IMG/VR virus record: IMGVR_UViG_2537561977_000031
Location: 1-23,390 of that record
Source: a virus
Taxonomy: Duplodnaviria > Heunggongvirae > Uroviricota > Caudoviricetes
Length of the DNA: 23,390 bases
Direction: 5' to 3' (one strand)
This document shows positions 2,082 to 20,424 of this stretch, piece by piece (position 1 is the stretch's first letter; every line of letters starts with the position of its first letter). The translations under genes and the position numbers were made by a program. The notes beneath the pieces are model-generated. The model was not told the origin of the DNA and ran no database searches. It was given only the letters and a program-made list of their open reading frames with translations.

Positions 2082-2230
2082 TTTTATGTCCTTTGCATTT
2101 GTTCAGATAGCCCTGTGTTCAGCAGGGCGGTCAGGTACTTGAACACCGTGCAAAGTCGGCCCGTATCCTTAACCTTTCGGCTGTTTTTCGGTATACGCGC
2201 TACCCGACCATATCTGAAAAATGGACATAA

Positions 2231-3920: not shown

Positions 3921-4416
3921 CTCCAACCTCTTTAACGGTAACTGTCTGTGCCTCCAGTTCTGCTATGCGCTTTTCTGAGGCTTCAAGTAACGCCTGCTTA
4001 TCGCGTAGCGCTTCTTCCAGTTCAGCAACATGGCATTCACTATCAATAAGGTTGTTCTCTGCTGCTTCCAGCTCAACACGCAACTTCCCTACCGTTAGCG
4101 CAATTTCCTCGTTCTCCTGATCGCGGCTTTTGATGTATTGCAGGTTTCTTTCCCGTTCATCCAGTAGTGCCAGCGCAACATTTGGATTAAAAGCAGCAAT
4201 AAATTCAGCGTTTGCATAAGCCTGAACATCTGTTTCAACCAGGCAGTTAACATGACATTCCGCAATCACACCACCGGGTTCTCCTTTCCATTTTTGACAA
4301 ACAAAAACTCCTGTTATATTCCCATGCTGATTGCCCGATGTATGCCCTACGATGTAGCTCCCTTTCGTTGCCTTTTCTGCCGCATCACGCAGTGCCTGAT
4401 AATTAATTTCGCTCAC
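3913..4416 (-). CDS. Ead/Ea22-like protein (167 aa, GTG start)
   Basis: MSEINYQALR... and LLDERERNLQYIKSRDQENEEIALTVGKLRVEL coiled-coil region resembling Ea22-like prophage proteins. Confidence 0.6.
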   Translation of the reverse strand: MSEINYQALRDAAEKATKGSYIVGHTSGNQHGNITGVFVCQKWKGEPGGVIAECHVNCLVETDVQAYANAEFIAAFNPNVALALLDERERNLQYIKSRDQENEEIALTVGKLRVELEAAENNLIDSECHVAELEEALRDKQALLEASEKRIAELEAQTVTVKEVGDA

Positions 4417-4538
4417 TTCGAACCTCTCTGTTTACTGATAAGCTCCAGATCTGCATTAAGCGCAGCAAAAATCTCTGGTGGTGTGCGCCAGCTGTCGCGA
4501 TGTTCGGCAGGAGTATTGCTTCCGGTGAAATCAGTCAT
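4413..4538 (-). CDS. Small ORF (41 aa), candidate
   Basis: [41 protein letters not shown]; start overlaps upstream stop (ATGA) and stop overlaps Ea22-like GTG (GTGA). Confidence 0.35.
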   Translation of the reverse strand: MTDFTGSNTPAEHRDSWRTPPEIFAALNADLELISKQRGSK

Positions 4539-4693
4539 ACAGCCCCCCGTTTATTATTTATCTCCTCAGCCAGCCGCTGTGCTTTCAGTGGATTTCTGAT
4601 AACAGAAAGGCCGGGAAATACCCAGCCTCGCTTTGTAACGGAGTAGATGAAAGTGATCGCACCTACCCGGATATTATCGCGAGGATGCTTCAT
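4535..4693 (-). CDS. Small ORF (52 aa) immediately downstream of exo, candidate
   Basis: [52 protein letters not shown]; ATG overlaps exo stop (ATGA). Confidence 0.4.
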
Positions 4694-5370
4694 CGCCATT
4701 GCTCCCCAAATACAAAACCAATTTCAGCCAGTGCCTCGTCCATTTTTTCGATGAACTCCGGCACCATCTCGTCAAAATTCGCCATGTACCTTTCATCCCG
4801 CTCAACCACGACATAATGCAGGCCTTCACGCTTCATGCGCGGGTCATAGTTGGCAAAGTACCAGGCATCTTTTCGCGTCACCCACATGCTGTACTGCACC
4901 TGGGCCATGTAAGCCGACTTTATGGCCTCGAAACCACCGAGCCGGAACTTCATGAAATCCCGGGAGGTAAACGGGCATTTCAGCTCAAGGCCATTGCCGT
5001 CACTGCATAAACCATCGGGAGAGCAGGCGGTGCGCATACTTTCGTCGCGATAGATGATCGGGGATTCAGTAACATTCACGCCGGAAGTGAATTCAAACAG
5101 AGTTCTGGCGTCGTTCTCGTACTGTTTTCCCCATGCCAGCGCCTTAGCATTAACTTCCGGAGCCACACCGGTGCAAACCTCAGCCAGCAGGGTGTGGAAG
5201 TAGGACATTTTCATGTCAGGCCACTTCTTTCCTGAGCGGGGCTTTGCTATCACGTTGTGAACTTCTGAAGCGGTGATGACGCCGAGCCGTAATTTGTGCC
5301 ACGCATCATCTCCCTGCTCGATAGCTCTCACGTCGATCCCGGTACGCTGCAGGATAATGTCCGGTGTCAT
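4690..5370 (-). CDS. exo: Lambda-type exonuclease (Red alpha)
   Basis: 226 aa, [54 protein letters not shown]... matches lambda Exo as I recall it. Confidence 0.95.
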
Positions 5371-6152
5371 GCTGCCACCTTCTGTTCAGTGGCTTTTTGT
5401 TTCAGGAATCCAAGAGCTTTCACTGCTTCGGCCTGTGTCAGTTCTGACGATGCGCGAATGTCGCGGCGAAATATCTGGGAACAGAGCGGCAATAAGTCGT
5501 CATCCCATGTTTTATCCAGGGCGATCAGCAGAGTGTTAATCTCCTGCATGGTTTCATCGTTAACCGGAGTGATGTCGCGTTCCGGCTGACGTTCTGCAGT
5601 GTATGCGGTATTTTCGACAATGCGCTCGGCTTCATCCTTGTCATAGATACCAGCAAATCCGAAGGCGAGACGGGCACACTGAATCATGGTTTTATGACGT
5701 AACATCCGTTTGGGATGCGACTGCCACGGTCCGGTGATTTCTCTGCCTTCGCGGGTTTTGAATGGTTCGCGGCGGCATTCATCCATCCACTCGGTAACGC
5801 AGATCGGATGATTGCGGTCCTTGCGGTAAATCCGGCATGTGCAGGATTCATTGTCCTGCTCAAAGTCCATACCATCAAACTGCTGGTTTTCATTGATGAT
5901 GCGGGACCAGCCATCAACGCCCACCACCGGAACGATGCCGTTCTGCTTATCAGGGAAGGCGTAAATTTCTTTCGTCCACGGATTAAGGCCGTACTGGTTG
6001 GCGACGATCAACAATGCGATGAACTGCGCATCGCTGGCATCACCTTTAAATGCCGTCTGGCGAAGAGTGGTGATCAGTTCTTGTGGGTCGACAGAATCCA
6101 TGCCGACACGTTCAGCCAGCTTCCCAGCCAGCGTTGCGAGTGCTGTACTCAT
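5367..6152 (-). CDS. bet: Lambda-type Bet (Red beta) single-strand annealing protein
   Basis: 261 aa, [59 protein letters not shown]... Confidence 0.95.
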
Positions 6153-6157
6153 CCGTT

Positions 6158-6453
6158 TTATACCTCTGAATCAATATCAACCTGGTGGTGAGCAATGGTT
6201 TCAACCATGTACTGGATGTGTTCTGCCATGCGCTCCTGAAACTCAACATCGTCATCAAACGCACGGGTAATGGCTTTTTTGCTGGCCCCGTGGCGTTGCA
6301 AATGATCGATGCATAGCGATTCAAACAGGTGCTGGGGCAGGCCTTTTTCCATGTCGTCTGCCAGTTCTGCCTCTTTCTCTTCACGGGCGAGCTGCTGGTA
6401 GTGACGCGCCCAGCTCTGAGCCTCAAGACGATCCTGAATGTAATAAGCGTTCA
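6158..6453 (-). pseudogene. gam: gam remnant, N-terminally truncated by IS1 (retains residues matching lambda Gam from [14 protein letters not shown]... to the C-terminus)
   Basis: Minus-strand translation upstream of the 64-aa track ORF continues in frame as ...[40 protein letters not shown]... up to the IS1 boundary; no start codon remains. Confidence 0.85.
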
Positions 6454-6468
6454 GGTAATGACTCCAAC

Positions 6469-6972
6469 TTACTGATAGTGTTTTATGTTCAGATAATGCC
6501 CGATGACCTTGTCATGCAGCTCCACCGATTTTGAGAACGACAGTGACTTCCGTCCCAGCCTTGCCAGATGTTGTCTCAGATTCAGATTATGTCGCTCAAT
6601 GCGCTGAGTGTAACGCTTGCTGATAACGTGCAGCTTTCCCTTCAGGCGTGATTCATACAGCGGCCAGCCATCCGTCATCCATACCACGACCTCAAAGGCC
6701 GACAGCAGGCTCAGAAGACGCTCCAGTGTGGCCAGAGTGCGTTCACCGAAGACGTGCGCCACAACCGTCCTCCGTATCCTGTCATACGCGTAAAACAGCC
6801 AGCGCTGACGTGATTTAGCACCGACGTAGCCCCACTGTTCGTCCATTTCAGCGCAGACAATCACATCACTGCCCGGTTGTATGCGCGAGGTTACCGACTG
6901 CGGCCTGAGTTTTTTAAGTGACGTAAAACCGTGTTGAGGCCAACGCCCATAATGCGTGCACTGGCGCGACAT
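6469..6972 (-). CDS. insB: IS1 transposase InsB
   Basis: 167 aa ORF, ...[19 protein letters not shown]... Confidence 0.9.
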
Positions 6973-7166
6973 CCGACGCCATTCATGGCCATATCAATGA
7001 TTTTCTGGTGCGTACCGGGCTGAGAGGCGGTGTAAGTGAACTGTAGTTGCCATGTTTTACGGCAATGAGAGCAGAGATAGCGCTGATGTCCGGCAGTGCT
7101 TTTGCCGTTACGCACCACGCCTTCAGTAGCGGAGCAGGAAGGACATCTGATGGAAATGGAAGCCAC
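6891..7166 (-). CDS. insA: IS1 InsA
   Basis: 91 aa, [43 protein letters not shown]... Confidence 0.9.
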
Positions 7167-7221
7167 GCAAGCACCTTAAAATCACCATCATACACTAAAT
7201 CAGTAAGTTGGCAGCATTACC

Positions 7222-7374
7222 CACAATCAGACTGATACGCTTGGCTTCATCTTTTGTCAGGTCGCGAGGCAGGTTGCCAATGGTGACGATAAGATCTCCG
7301 CGCAATGGAATCGGCAGTTCAAATGTTTTTACACCAACCTGTACGTCAGCTACCGCCTTCTTCTTAGGTGCCAT
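7222..7374 (-). pseudogene. Unknown early-left gene, C-terminally truncated by IS1 (51 codons remain)
   Basis: GGAG SD 9 nt before ATG at 7374; MAPKKKAVADVQVGVKTFELPIPLRGDLIVTIGNLPRDLTKDEAKRISLIV then reads into IS1. Confidence 0.4.
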
Positions 7375-7715
7375 CTTTTTACGCTCCTTTTTTTATTTAC
7401 ATCACCAACTGACACATTAATCTCACCATTCTGGTAGGAGATAAATTTATCAATAGCACTTTGCATTCGGCTTTTGTATGCCTGCAAAGATGATTCAGAA
7501 GGTTTGCTTTCTGCTGAGTCTGCGTACGAACTTGCTAAGTTGGCAACGCTATAATCACGGATATCGGCATCGGTGAAATCCGACCCAAGAACAGTAAGAA
7601 GGCGCAGGGAAGAGTCACGGAGATTGCGGGCTGTAGCATCATTGACGATACCAAGCTCAGGAAGCATCTGTAAGAAGTCCTGAAATGCTTTGATGGTGTA
7701 GCTTTTGGTTTGCAT
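7350..7715 (-). CDS. Hypothetical protein (121 aa), Arg-rich C-terminus; no SD, ATG directly follows a hairpin/T-run
   Basis: Track ORF; compositionally protein-like; start context unusual. Confidence 0.4.
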   Translation of the reverse strand: MQTKSYTIKAFQDFLQMLPELGIVNDATARNLRDSSLRLLTVLGSDFTDADIRDYSVANLASSYADSAESKPSESSLQAYKSRMQSAIDKFISYQNGEINVSVGDVNKKRSVKRWHLRRRR

Positions 7716-7741
7716 AAAAAAGCCTCATACAGTTGATGAGG
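7715..7741 (-). terminator. Candidate terminator of the cI operon (or structured element at the start of the 121-aa ORF)
   Basis: Minus-strand hairpin GCCTCAT-CAACTGT-ATGAGGC followed by TTTTT. Confidence 0.35.
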
Positions 7742-7904
7742 CAATACTAATTTGATCGTCAAAACAAATCAAGACCCAAGAAACGATCGTTGATTCCTTT
7801 CTTTGTGACAATACAGTCAAATCAAGTTTTACAAGGATTACTTTTCTTCGATTACATTAAAGGCCGCACTTCTGCGACCATCCATCACCAAAATGTCTCT
7901 TCAC

Positions 7905-8246
7905 TCATCCGAAGAAGCAGCAATCCGGGTCAGCACGCACAAGCTCAAGCGCATCAGTCAGCGAAAGTTCAGTACTGTACTGATGCCATTTCATATCCTT
8001 CCGCATCCAATAGATTTTCCATCTATCCAGAGAACGTATGTACTTGATTCTTGCTGATGGCAGGATGTTTGTTTCACCTGGGTTGCCCTGCCACACGGGG
8101 CGCTGTTCGCCGATATCTATCGTTTGGTCATTGATGCTATAAACAATATCCAGTTCATTGCGGATATGTTCAGGCGGCCTTATGCTTTCAATGAATTGGT
8201 GAACTTCTTTTTTGACCGCTTGATATTCAAGGTCAGTGAACGCCAT
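7905..8246 (-). CDS. Hypothetical protein (113 aa) directly downstream of cI, same strand
   Basis: Strong SD GAGGAGG 4-5 nt before ATG; only 37 bp after the cI stop; occupies the position of lambda rexAB. Confidence 0.7.
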   Translation of the reverse strand: MAFTDLEYQAVKKEVHQFIESIRPPEHIRNELDIVYSINDQTIDIGEQRPVWQGNPGETNILPSARIKYIRSLDRWKIYWMRKDMKWHQYSTELSLTDALELVRADPDCCFFG

Positions 8247-8283
8247 CTATCCTCCTCACCCAAACGTTTCTTCAGGCCACTGG

Positions 8284-8991
8284 TTACCAGCTATGCGATG
8301 ACCAGAATACTCTGCCAATAATCCTTACGGTTTTATGAAATTCATCTCTATCCATTACTTCATCCGGGTACTCTTCGCGATTTATTGATCTGATTATCAC
8401 CGATGTAGGAGTGGCGATTAATGTTTTTACTCGCAACAAATCAGACTGGCAAATAGCGTAGGTTTTACCATCTCTGATGGTGGTATCTTGTGTGTTAACA
8501 CCAACAACATCGCCATCGTGAAGAGTTGGTTCCATGCTTTGACCTGTTACCCTTACCAGCTTGGCAGAACTTTCAGTTACCCCCATCTTTTTCAGATAGT
8601 ACTTTCTGAAAACCAAAGAGAACTCTGATGATTCTTCTATCTCGCAGCTACCGCTTCCAGCCGAAAGCGAAACGTTAAGAAGAGGCAATGCGACAAACTC
8701 GTCATCGTTTTTTTTAATGTCTTCCCATACCACAGCTTTTAAAGATGACTCACGGATATTGGATGGTTCTTCATGTGTACCATCCCTCATTTCACCAATA
8801 CCAGAACTAAGCCATTCAGGGCGTACTTTTAAAGCATTAGCTAACTCAACCATCTTGCGAGATCCGTTTGTTTTACCGGATGACATCTTCTGTATGGCTG
8901 GCTGAGATATTCCAACCATGTCCGCAAGCTGTGATTGCGACACCCCTGCCGATCTCATGGCTGCATTTAGTCTTTCTGCGAATGTTTTCAT
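8284..8991 (-). CDS. cI: CI-type prophage repressor (N-terminal HTH, C-terminal S24 LexA-like peptidase); start likely at Met 8991 (track ORF begins at a TTG at 9021)
   Basis: HTH segment QSQLADMVGISQPAIQKMSSG; peptidase motif GQSMEPTLHDGD with downstream Lys; divergent from cro. Confidence 0.85.
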   Translation of the reverse strand: MKTFAERLNAAMRSAGVSQSQLADMVGISQPAIQKMSSGKTNGSRKMVELANALKVRPEWLSSGIGEMRDGTHEEPSNIRESSLKAVVWEDIKKNDDEFVALPLLNVSLSAGSGSCEIEESSEFSLVFRKYYLKKMGVTESSAKLVRVTGQSMEPTLHDGDVVGVNTQDTTIRDGKTYAICQSDLLRVKTLIATPTSVIIRSINREEYPDEVMDRDEFHKTVRIIGRVFWSSHSW

Positions 8992-9102
8992 ATCCACAAA
9001 TCTATAACTACGGTTATCCAAAGTAAAATAATAAAGGTTATTGCTATCTTTTATAACTTGGGTTATCCTTGGTTATAAGTAATGGCTGAAAGAGGTATGC
9101 TC
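8992..9102. promoter_or_regulatory. Divergent operator/promoter region (OR-like) between cI and cro
   Basis: Two 14-bp palindromes ATAAC-N4-GTTAT at 9004-9017 and 9051-9064 plus further GTTAT/TTATAA half-sites. Confidence 0.5.
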
Positions 9103-9327
9103 ATGAATTTAGTAATTCAACGAGCCTTGAAGATTGTCGGTAGTCAAAAGCGGCTTGCCGACAAGTGTGGTGTAACGCAGCCAGCAGTACACAAATGGCT
9201 GAAAGGCGGGCAGGTTTCTCCAGAGAAAGTTACCGCCATCGTTAACGCCACTGGAGGGCAGATCAAGGCTTACGAAATTCGCCCAGATTTACCACACCTG
9301 TTTCCAAAACCGAATCAGGCAGCATAA
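9103..9327 (+). CDS. cro: Cro-like HTH regulator (74 aa; alternative starts at 9082/9097)
   Basis: SD AGAGG 7 nt before ATG 9103; HTH QKRLADKCGVTQPAVHKWLKG; position divergent from cI. Confidence 0.7.
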   Translation: MNLVIQRALKIVGSQKRLADKCGVTQPAVHKWLKGGQVSPEKVTAIVNATGGQIKAYEIRPDLPHLFPKPNQAA

Positions 9328-9334
9328 GTAACAC

Positions 9335-9380
9335 CGCTATTTTCACAATGGGCATTCGTCCTACGTCGCTGACAAAGCGA
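9335..9380 (+). promoter_or_regulatory. Candidate nutR-like site: boxA-like CGCTATTTT and boxB-like hairpin TCGCT-GACAA-AGCGA
   Basis: 5-bp stem with GACAA pentaloop (P22-type boxB loop) located between cro and cII. Confidence 0.3.
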
Positions 9381-20268: not shown

Positions 20269-20343
20269 GGGTCAGTCGTATAAAGGTCATTACGGAAGGC
20301 TGTTAACCTTCTTATCGTGGTTCGAGTCCACGCTGTCCCGCCA
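20269..20343 (+). tRNA. tRNA-like gene, anticodon GTT (Asn) by manual fold; one U-U mismatch in acceptor stem and a 3-bp D stem
   Basis: Acceptor GGGTCAG/CTGTCCC, anticodon stem GAAGG/CCTTC with loop CTGTTAA, T arm CGTGG-TTCGAGT-CCACG, discriminator G, encoded CCA. Confidence 0.5.
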
Positions 20344-20348
20344 AATAT

Positions 20349-20424
20349 GCTGGTTTAGCTCTAATGGTAGAGCAGTCGCCTTGTAAGCGAATGGGTAGCG
20401 GTTCAAGTCCGTTAACCAGCACCA
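20349..20424 (+). tRNA. tRNA gene, anticodon TGT (Thr) by manual fold
   Basis: Perfect 7-bp acceptor GCTGGTT/AACCAGC, D arm GCTC-TAATGGTA-GAGC, anticodon loop CTTGTAA, T loop TTCAAGT, encoded CCA. Confidence 0.65.

Follow-up and report, generated by a model that had tools for sequence, protein, structure and literature searches.

The closest described counterparts of the genes analyzed here are accessory genes that lie next to the repressor of a prophage. In lambda, rexA and rexB lie on the cI strand, bounded by cI and OL/pL. The 434 Hex and BstA genes each represent a single accessory gene directly downstream of a lambdoid repressor; Hex is an inhibitor of RecA-mediated repressor cleavage that also excludes P22, and BstA acts by abortive infection. 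In phage 933W, the annotated series is cI-L0084-L0083-stk-L0081-tM, with L0084 as the first gene after cI (Plunkett 1999). The 933W kinase Stk is reported to be an abortive infection factor against HK97 (Friedman 2011, as cited in PMC3564112), and this protein matches the PD-T4-6 models. In addition, PADLOC holds 145 candidate systems named PDC, which are bioinformatic nominations that rest on the genes lying within BREX, DISARM or type I RM loci. Prophages also carry morons, in Hendrix's sense of the word: autonomous cargo units that have their own promoter and terminator and are found in varied contexts.

The stretch of DNA that we analyzed (the window; 23,390 nt) carries a defective lambdoid prophage of the 933W/SH2026Stx1 type, i.e., a Shiga-toxin-type prophage. 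Two ORFs of 113 and 121 aa follow its cI on the same strand and had been taken, in a sequence-only reading, for a Rex-like pair of cotranscribed genes. The explanation that best accounts for our results, to which we assign a probability of roughly 60%, is that each of them is an independent piece of lysogeny cargo in a cI-to-pL hotspot, in a prophage that was later crippled by IS1. The site is a real and ordinary hotspot for lysogen cargo, not a new two-gene system. The features from the operators to the end of the first gene are as follows.

9003-9018 and 9052-9067, with a degenerate copy at 9062-9077, no strand assigned: OR operators, TATAAC-N4-GTTATC
8284-8991, minus strand: cI-type repressor, 235 aa from MKTF, with HTH_3 and Peptidase_S24 domains (Pfam); stop TAA at 8286-8284
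7861-8301, no strand assigned: mosaic block of 441 bp with 96.8% nucleotide identity to 933W (blastn)
8257-8251, minus strand: Shine-Dalgarno sequence GAGGAGG of the DUF3024 gene, 4 nt ahead of the ATG at 8246, as read from the sequence
7905-8246, minus strand: DUF3024 gene, intact, 113 aa, with Pfam, PHROG and PADLOC matches
7879-7862, minus strand: hairpin after the DUF3024 stop, GGUCGCA-GAAG-UGCGGCC, 7 bp including 5 G-C pairs, centroid -11.9 kcal/mol

The 113-aa ORF is a real, intact gene. As had been claimed, it has a strong Shine-Dalgarno sequence and starts 37 nt past the cI stop on the same strand. Its product matches the Pfam family PF11225 (DUF3024) with 108.7 bits against a gathering cutoff of 24.9, residues 4-113 corresponding to profile positions 2-112 of 112, and it also matches phrog_3467. 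The PADLOC model PDC-S43 aligns over its full length (E = 7.2e-42; residues 1-113 on profile positions 1-115 of 115), although PDC entries are nominations and membership says nothing yet about activity. The earlier statement that neither ORF matches a family therefore does not hold, given these three matches for the 113-aa ORF and one to phrog_2602 for the 121-aa ORF; an NCBIfam scan of the ORF proteins returned no match. In the literature, PDC-S43 was found named only in one strain inventory, beside PD-T4-6, and the PDC supplement tables in text form do not name S43. Our searches found no paper naming the DUF3024 family and, for L0084/L0083, only unrelated papers, with no published role for L0084.

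Several features indicate that this gene is maintained. Its dN/dS of 0.08 to 0.16 points to purifying selection, and about 40 homologues have 113 aa with conserved or invariant ends (N-terminal MAFxD, C-terminal CFFG). The orthologue in 933W is L0084, with 98% amino acid identity. Most 933W-type Shiga-toxin phages carry the gene, which is present in 144 phage records and over 220 complete genomes of E. coli. The wider family, gathered by a profile search, comprises 1,314 clusters at 50% identity from many phyla; nearly all of its members are stand-alone proteins of about 115 aa, and fusions to an XRE-type HTH exist and are rare. In the VT2-Sakai/1717 lineage the gene has decayed, about 50 phage records matching it in two pieces at 83%, and it is therefore dispensable.

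The likeness to 933W is limited to a short segment. Namely, the mosaic block contains the end of cI (~18 nt, with the stop), the DUF3024 gene and the hairpin, and its flanks are unrelated to 933W on both sides. Upstream, the two cI proteins share 29% identity over 68 aa only and represent different immunity alleles (in the closest relative of the window, PGAP annotates the same 708-nt cI CDS). Downstream, homology ends at 7861; L0083-stk-L0081 is absent from the window, which has a PHROG 2602 gene instead, and the ORF list contains no kinase ORF between cI and IS1. The two loci thus have in common the DUF3024 orthologue, its place and the hairpin downstream of it.

This hairpin, which the sequence-only reading had also noticed, is confirmed as a 7-bp stem and ends in a weak U tail, UUUAAUG. 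The same hairpin lies between L0084 and L0083-stk in 933W. PMC3564112, citing Tyler 2004, reports that 933W stk is cotranscribed with cI; therefore, the shared hairpin must be leaky in 933W, and its probable role is that of a leaky terminator or 3' stabilizer. We found no terminator-like or promoter-like site on scanning the sequence of the 37-nt gap between cI and the DUF3024 gene. Given this gap, the cotranscription of 933W stk and the leakiness of the shared hairpin, coexpression of DUF3024 with cI is plausible. In the lysogen, the gene would be transcribed from pRM together with cI, and the hairpin would end or stabilize most of the cI-DUF3024 transcript.

DUF3024 is the first gene behind at least six unrelated prophage repressors. 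It directly follows the repressor in the window, in 933W, in the P22-like phage ST160 and in prophages of Izhakiella and Kluyvera, and a decayed copy lies behind cI in VT2-Sakai. The repressor is c2 in ST160, an S24 protein 36% identical to the window cI in Izhakiella and, in the Rac-like prophage of Kluyvera, a 127-aa HTH protein without an S24 domain. In other genomes the gene occupies different places: in Erwinia and Rahnella it is found at prophage ends near dinI and tail-fibre genes, and in Yersinia ruckeri it is part of an ssrA island. Other occupants of the cI-to-pL hotspot in related prophages are BstA, the PD-T4-6-like Stk and a gene that resembles component C of PD-T4-9. As with Hex and BstA, the window has a single accessory gene directly downstream of a lambdoid repressor; BstA shares the hotspot with the PHROG 2602 gene in Yersinia, and DUF3024 has no match to the PADLOC BstA model.

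In the AlphaFold (AF2) model of the DUF3024 protein (pLDDT 89.7), five antiparallel strands are preceded by one helix and followed by another. The product is accordingly predicted to be soluble, an alpha-beta5-alpha sandwich for which no enzyme-like match turned up and which shows no catalytic signature. It is a 13.5-kDa, acidic protein (pI 5.3) without a hydrophobic segment. The maximum hydropathy over 19 residues is 0.63 to 0.81 for the two ORF proteins, and hence neither has a transmembrane segment. Searches of both sequences against the PDB returned only noise (AvrPto, CagZ; E > 0.07), and a Foldseek search of the DUF3024 model against viral structure models found nothing at E <= 0.001. 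Overall, homology searches and structure prediction, the checks that had been proposed for the two proteins, yielded a family for each of them and, for DUF3024, a fold that has no enzyme-like match.

DUF3024 is an already catalogued defence candidate, and the idea of an anti-phage role is a reasonable one on sequence grounds. A link to defence is supported by the way in which PDC systems were nominated, by the other occupants of the hotspot and by the wider family, in which a minority of 63 same-strand neighbours, roughly one in ten as estimated from family-level counts, matched PADLOC models. Our preference, held at somewhat less than even odds, is that the gene encodes a factor which is expressed in the lysogen and by itself protects against heterologous phages. 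The product would most likely act by binding another macromolecule; as a protective factor it would sequester or sense a phage or host protein, by a mechanism neither enzymatic nor membrane based. Several observations count against our overall explanation. A 113-aa protein without an enzymatic fold would be an unusual complete defence system, and the wider family has no conserved neighbour and many contexts that are not obviously related to defence. The decay of the gene in the VT2-Sakai/1717 lineage and the modest consensus score of the promoter-like site before the second gene also weigh against it.

The neighbours of DUF3024 bear on a different possibility, namely, that the protein is a helper (a sensor, adaptor or inhibitor) for a downstream cassette, originally the L0083-Stk-L0081 kinase cassette for abortive infection of 933W. 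An Erwinia prophage remnant carries DUF3024 (59% identity) followed by the 153-aa, kinase and small-ORF cassette of 933W, so that the order of DUF3024, a 153-aa gene, a 348-aa Pkinase gene and a gene of ~50 aa is common to both. Defence-like genes are also often located downstream of DUF3024: ST160 has a ParA-like gene there, and Kluyvera the one that resembles PD-T4-9 component C. Yet no Stk accompanies DUF3024 in ST160, Kluyvera, Rahnella, Yersinia ruckeri or the window, and in about 60 distant genomes its neighbours are unrelated. All-against-all neighbour clustering and Pfam counts across 80 distant genomes found no conserved partner gene; the 63 same-strand neighbours contained 78 Pfam families, the commonest of which (an HTH) was present in 3. 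PADLOC lists the gene as a single-gene candidate. We consider the helper role unlikely.

It is about equally unlikely that DUF3024 tunes lysogeny in the manner of 434 Hex, PsiB or DinI, by binding the repressor or RecA and altering spontaneous or SOS induction. Near-identical copies stand behind unrelated repressors, including the 127-aa HTH protein without S24, which argues against a repressor-specific partner, and most members of the family lie outside prophages. While there is some structural similarity to PsiB, a dozen unrelated sandwich folds resemble the protein at least as well. Less probable again is a role outside defence, either in anti-defence or self-protection of the prophage (Acr-like or anti-restriction) or as a host fitness factor, given that anti-defence genes are usually early lytic rather than linked to pRM and that the structural scores are weak and nonspecific. 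The features of the second ORF and its surroundings are as follows.

7744-7772, minus strand: promoter-like element of the second gene, with -35 TTGATT (7772-7767), a 17-nt spacer and -10 TAGTAT (7749-7744)
7722-7742, minus strand: hairpin before the ATG at 7715, GCCUCAU-loop-AUGAGGC followed by U6, with a GAGG Shine-Dalgarno sequence in the 3' arm
7350-7715, minus strand: 121-aa ORF, the 5' part of a pseudogenized 177-aa gene of PHROG 2602
7388-7394, minus strand: A7 run, the frameshift site; A8 in intact relatives (alignment with SH2026Stx1)
7222-7374, minus strand: 3' part of the PHROG 2602 pseudogene in the other frame, with the beta-beta-alpha domain; phrog_2602 positions 114-166, phrog_36396
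6454-7221, minus strand: IS1, 768 bp with insA/insB and inverted repeats as read from the sequence; present in place of 2,369 bp of ancestral prophage sequence

The sequence-only reading had counted the 121-aa ORF as a gene. The ORF exists, but it is not an intact gene, as a frameshift from A8 to A7 and a truncation by IS1 have broken it. Our references for the intact form, of 177 aa, were phage SH2026Stx1 (gp20) and E. coli FDAARGOS_944 (WP_001193679.1); the same protein is found on 662 contigs in the protein collection. On the phrog_2602 profile of 173 positions, the 121-aa ORF covers positions 1-118, and a 59-aa ORF (7195-7374, minus strand), which overlaps the former and runs into IS1, covers positions 114-166. 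The 121-aa ORF comprises a core-binding-like domain and an out-of-frame tail from about codon 108, and the last 12 codons of the gene have been replaced by IS1. Six E. coli relatives that match over the whole query do so over 1062 nt, compared with 1061 in the window. A sequencing error was considered and is unlikely, as the exact 121-aa product is recorded in Shigella boydii (7 contigs). This record, together with a 63-aa member of the same cluster on 613 contigs, presumably the C-terminal fragment of the PHROG 2602 gene, indicates that the frameshift allele is real, and several Shigella and E. coli assemblies carry the broken form. Judged from its reading frames, the 121-aa ORF belongs to a pseudogene, frameshifted and cut short by IS1, that is nonfunctional in the window. 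Cloning the second ORF from the window strain is inadvisable because the gene is dead there.

Intact copies have evolved under purifying selection, with dN/dS of 0.06 to 0.17. The protein that they encode consists of a core-binding domain of the tyrosine recombinase type, the fold of which it shows, a basic disordered linker (residues 102-128) and a small beta-beta-alpha domain. In the latter, residues 131-168 form a nearly invariant unit, FELPIPLRxDLIVxIxNLPRDLTxxEAxRIsxIVESFA, within a C-terminal unit of about 45 residues. The closest known proteins are the core-binding (SAM-like) domain of tyrosine recombinases and the recombinase-derived regulators MrpR of SPbeta and SroF of phi3T. In contrast to these, the PHROG 2602 protein has the basic linker and the 45-residue beta-beta-alpha domain and lacks a catalytic domain: there is no Phage_integrase match and no RHR-Y, and the protein ends at residue 177. 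A PADLOC scan of the protein returned no match. The intact protein probably binds DNA.

The PHROG 2602 gene is found in several genomic contexts. In Serratia and Yersinia it lies between cI and N, once beside BstA in Yersinia; in Salmonella it follows dinI at the end of P2-like prophages; in Enterobacter it belongs to an island with integrase, AlpA, primase and capsid genes; and it also occurs beside SSB and D5 primase genes. The family therefore exists without an upstream cI, at Salmonella prophage ends and in satellite-like islands. An ORF of 44-45 aa is often located downstream of the gene and is at least 90% identical across genera, with a conserved leader of ~170 nt; in the window, this 44-aa partner has been deleted. 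PHROG 2602 is the more original, uncatalogued cargo gene of the locus, present in the window as a dead copy.

The region upstream of the second gene suggests that it has its own control. About 190 nt separate the DUF3024 gene from the 121-aa ORF. The promoter-like element in this gap agrees with the consensus at 8 of 12 positions, which is under the threshold of the scanner, and its -10 TAGTAT sits two nt upstream of the stem at 7722-7742. The order of -35, 17-nt spacer, -10, hairpin and ATG is kept across four genera, including Salmonella, Serratia and Yersinia, in which the proteins are 52-79% identical. In these three genera the stem shows compensatory changes in its outer pairs and variable loops, and the Yersinia version has no U-run. 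Terminators downstream of the PHROG 2602 gene can be seen in relatives, and its genomic contexts vary. We infer that the PHROG 2602 gene is a moron, an autonomous piece of cargo with a sigma-70 promoter of its own, and not an obvious operon partner of cI. In such an arrangement, the hairpin and U-run before the ATG would terminate or mask read-through from cI, whereas a transcript from the gene's own promoter, starting ~7 nt after the -10, would begin inside the stem's 5' arm, with the Shine-Dalgarno sequence left free.

The promoter region of the second gene also contains TTGATTTG repeats at 7750-7830. An Rfam search over the intergenic regions, at gathering thresholds and at permissive E-values, found no family. 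Two candidates for the ~190-nt gap were rejected: a LexA box, the best match to which is an off-consensus CTGT-N8-AAAG, and pL/OL, which would have made the second gene the first gene of the pL transcript. There is no operator copy in the gap, and OL of the intact relative is located beyond the 44-aa ORF.

The position of the two genes was correctly described as that of rexAB. Beyond the OR pair, the window contains no perfect TATAAC-N4-GTTATC and no matching OL copy. The intact relative has one perfect leftward operator, which lies between the 44-aa ORF and an N remnant and overlaps a TTGACC-17-TATCTT promoter. This is its only perfect leftward operator and it is placed beyond both genes, next to N; thus, both genes ancestrally lay between cI and OL/pL. 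They share with rexA-rexB this place and the cI strand, and probably, to judge from the layout, expression in the lysogen. They differ in that they have no similarity to RexA or RexB, include no membrane component and are not a pair.

The loss of OL from the window can be traced to IS1. In blastn against FDAARGOS_944, window positions 4325-6453 correspond to L014 1-2129 and positions 7221-12804 to L014 4499-10062, the flanks on both sides of IS1 being 99.3-99.9% identical. The 2,369 bp that are missing held the end of the 177-aa gene, the 44-aa ORF, OL/pL, the N remnant, a gene of the Nmad5 family, cIII and kil. The prophage is crippled because this IS1-linked deletion took OL/pL, the N remnant, cIII and kil. 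In addition, the gam start codon has changed to CTG and ISEc20 splits a replication gene. The region is a case of typical Shigella-style decay, in which the IS1-associated loss of pL, the N remnant, cIII and kil locks the prophage in place.

Since the PHROG 2602 family has a promoter-like element of its own and occurs without cI, its gene is not a Rex-like partner of DUF3024, and the pairing proposed in the sequence-only reading has to be given up. A single functional, Rex-like operon made up of the 113-aa and the 121-aa ORF and transcribed from pRM is very improbable. In its favour, the two are neighbours on one strand where rex would be, and SH2026Stx1 carries the pair as well, as does VT2-Sakai with a decayed DUF3024. 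The window sequence, however, contradicts the idea, the 121-aa ORF being frameshifted and truncated; two hairpins and a conserved promoter-like site lie between the genes, each gene is widely found without the other, and Pfam, PHROG, NCBIfam and PADLOC scans of both ORFs found no Rex family and no RexB-like polytopic membrane protein.

With two independent pieces of cargo as the favoured explanation, each of them allows a bolder interpretation, although the two taken jointly seem doubtful to us. First, DUF3024 may be a new minimal, nonenzymatic cytoplasmic immunity protein that is expressed with the repressor and binds a conserved phage or host factor, which would explain why near-identical copies have been swapped behind unrelated repressors. 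Second, in the intact relatives, the PHROG 2602 protein, which has only the core-binding domain of a recombinase, and its ultraconserved 44-aa neighbour may constitute an uncatalogued DNA-sensing exclusion module, and such a module may be common to lambdoid prophages, the ends of P2-like prophages and capsid-forming satellites. The intact 177-aa and 44-aa pair of these relatives is the more original target; the value of follow-up work is moderate and lies mainly there. As for DUF3024, if it protects lysogens, it would be among the smallest soluble defence proteins known and would bear on which phages are able to superinfect EHEC and Shigella or to serve therapeutically against them. If it instead tunes induction, it would bear on the release of Shiga toxin.

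The window carries an IS1 element in its leftward early region.

6454-7221: IS1 (flanks examined: 6158-6453 and 7222-7374)

Compared with the intact relative E. coli FDAARGOS_944, 2,369 bp are missing beside this element; the deletion removed a 44-aa ORF, OL/pL, the N remnant, an Nmad5-family gene, cIII, and kil, and left gam with a CTG start codon in place of the previous ATG. The leftward early operon cannot be run by this prophage. FDAARGOS_944 also carries, in its O-like replication gene, the second insertion found in the window.

~10291-11487: IS110-family element (ISEc20 transposase, 398 aa), within the O-like replication gene

The small ORF that the window has lost neighbors the gene for the 177-aa PHROG 2602 protein in relatives, as in the following comparison loci.

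L001, 4653-4960, minus strand: 44-45-aa ORF (MAHDVNRDDFIYEHDKPVYVRSYCRIRFGELEHVRQHFRSYP..)
L007, 5535-5841: further copy
L095, 4535-4835: further copy
L099, 4487-4793: further copy

Its identity is at least 90% among E. coli, Salmonella, Serratia, and a Raoultella-type element, and that of the 177-aa partner protein falls to 43% across the same set. A conserved leader of ~170 nt with several stem-like repeats precedes the ORF, a terminator follows it, and neither Pfam nor Rfam returned a match. In the window, the PHROG 2602 gene itself is broken, and repeats span its promoter-like region.

7745-7830, minus strand: direct repeat TTGATTTG, two copies

Inverted partial copies (AATCAA, GATCAAAT) accompany these repeats, and similar TTGAT repeats lie upstream of the Salmonella homolog. 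The repeats may form an operator for the gene's own core-binding-domain protein. Elsewhere in the window, RNA matches at the Rfam gathering level were as follows.

16826-17010: isrK sRNA adjoining C4 antisense RNA, in the antirepressor region
2121-2209, minus strand: sRNA-Xcc1
20269-20421: two tRNA genes

The DUF3024 gene, intact in the window, occurs elsewhere in further settings, among them the following.

L102 (VT2-Sakai), 2501-2802: decayed DUF3024 gene; likewise in ~50 other Stx2 phage records
L004 (Erwinia aphidicola), 6001-8130: complete 933W-type cassette (DUF3024, 153-aa gene, 348-aa protein kinase, 47-aa gene)
P0108; L021, 1229-1993; L029, 3551-4315: XRE-type HTH fused to a C-terminal DUF3024 domain, 254 aa

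In the VT2-Sakai/1717 lineage, the gene is unannotated and was matched as two pieces (83%); given this decay, it is dispensable for those phages. Downstream in VT2-Sakai lies a 173-aa ORF (orf22), whose size fits the PHROG 2602 gene. The four-gene DUF3024-kinase cassette of 933W is kept complete in Erwinia aphidicola; there it sits at a prophage end, adjoining dinI and tail-fiber genes and remote from any repressor. The rare HTH-DUF3024 fusions hint that, within a transcription regulator, DUF3024 can serve as the sensor domain or as a partner domain.
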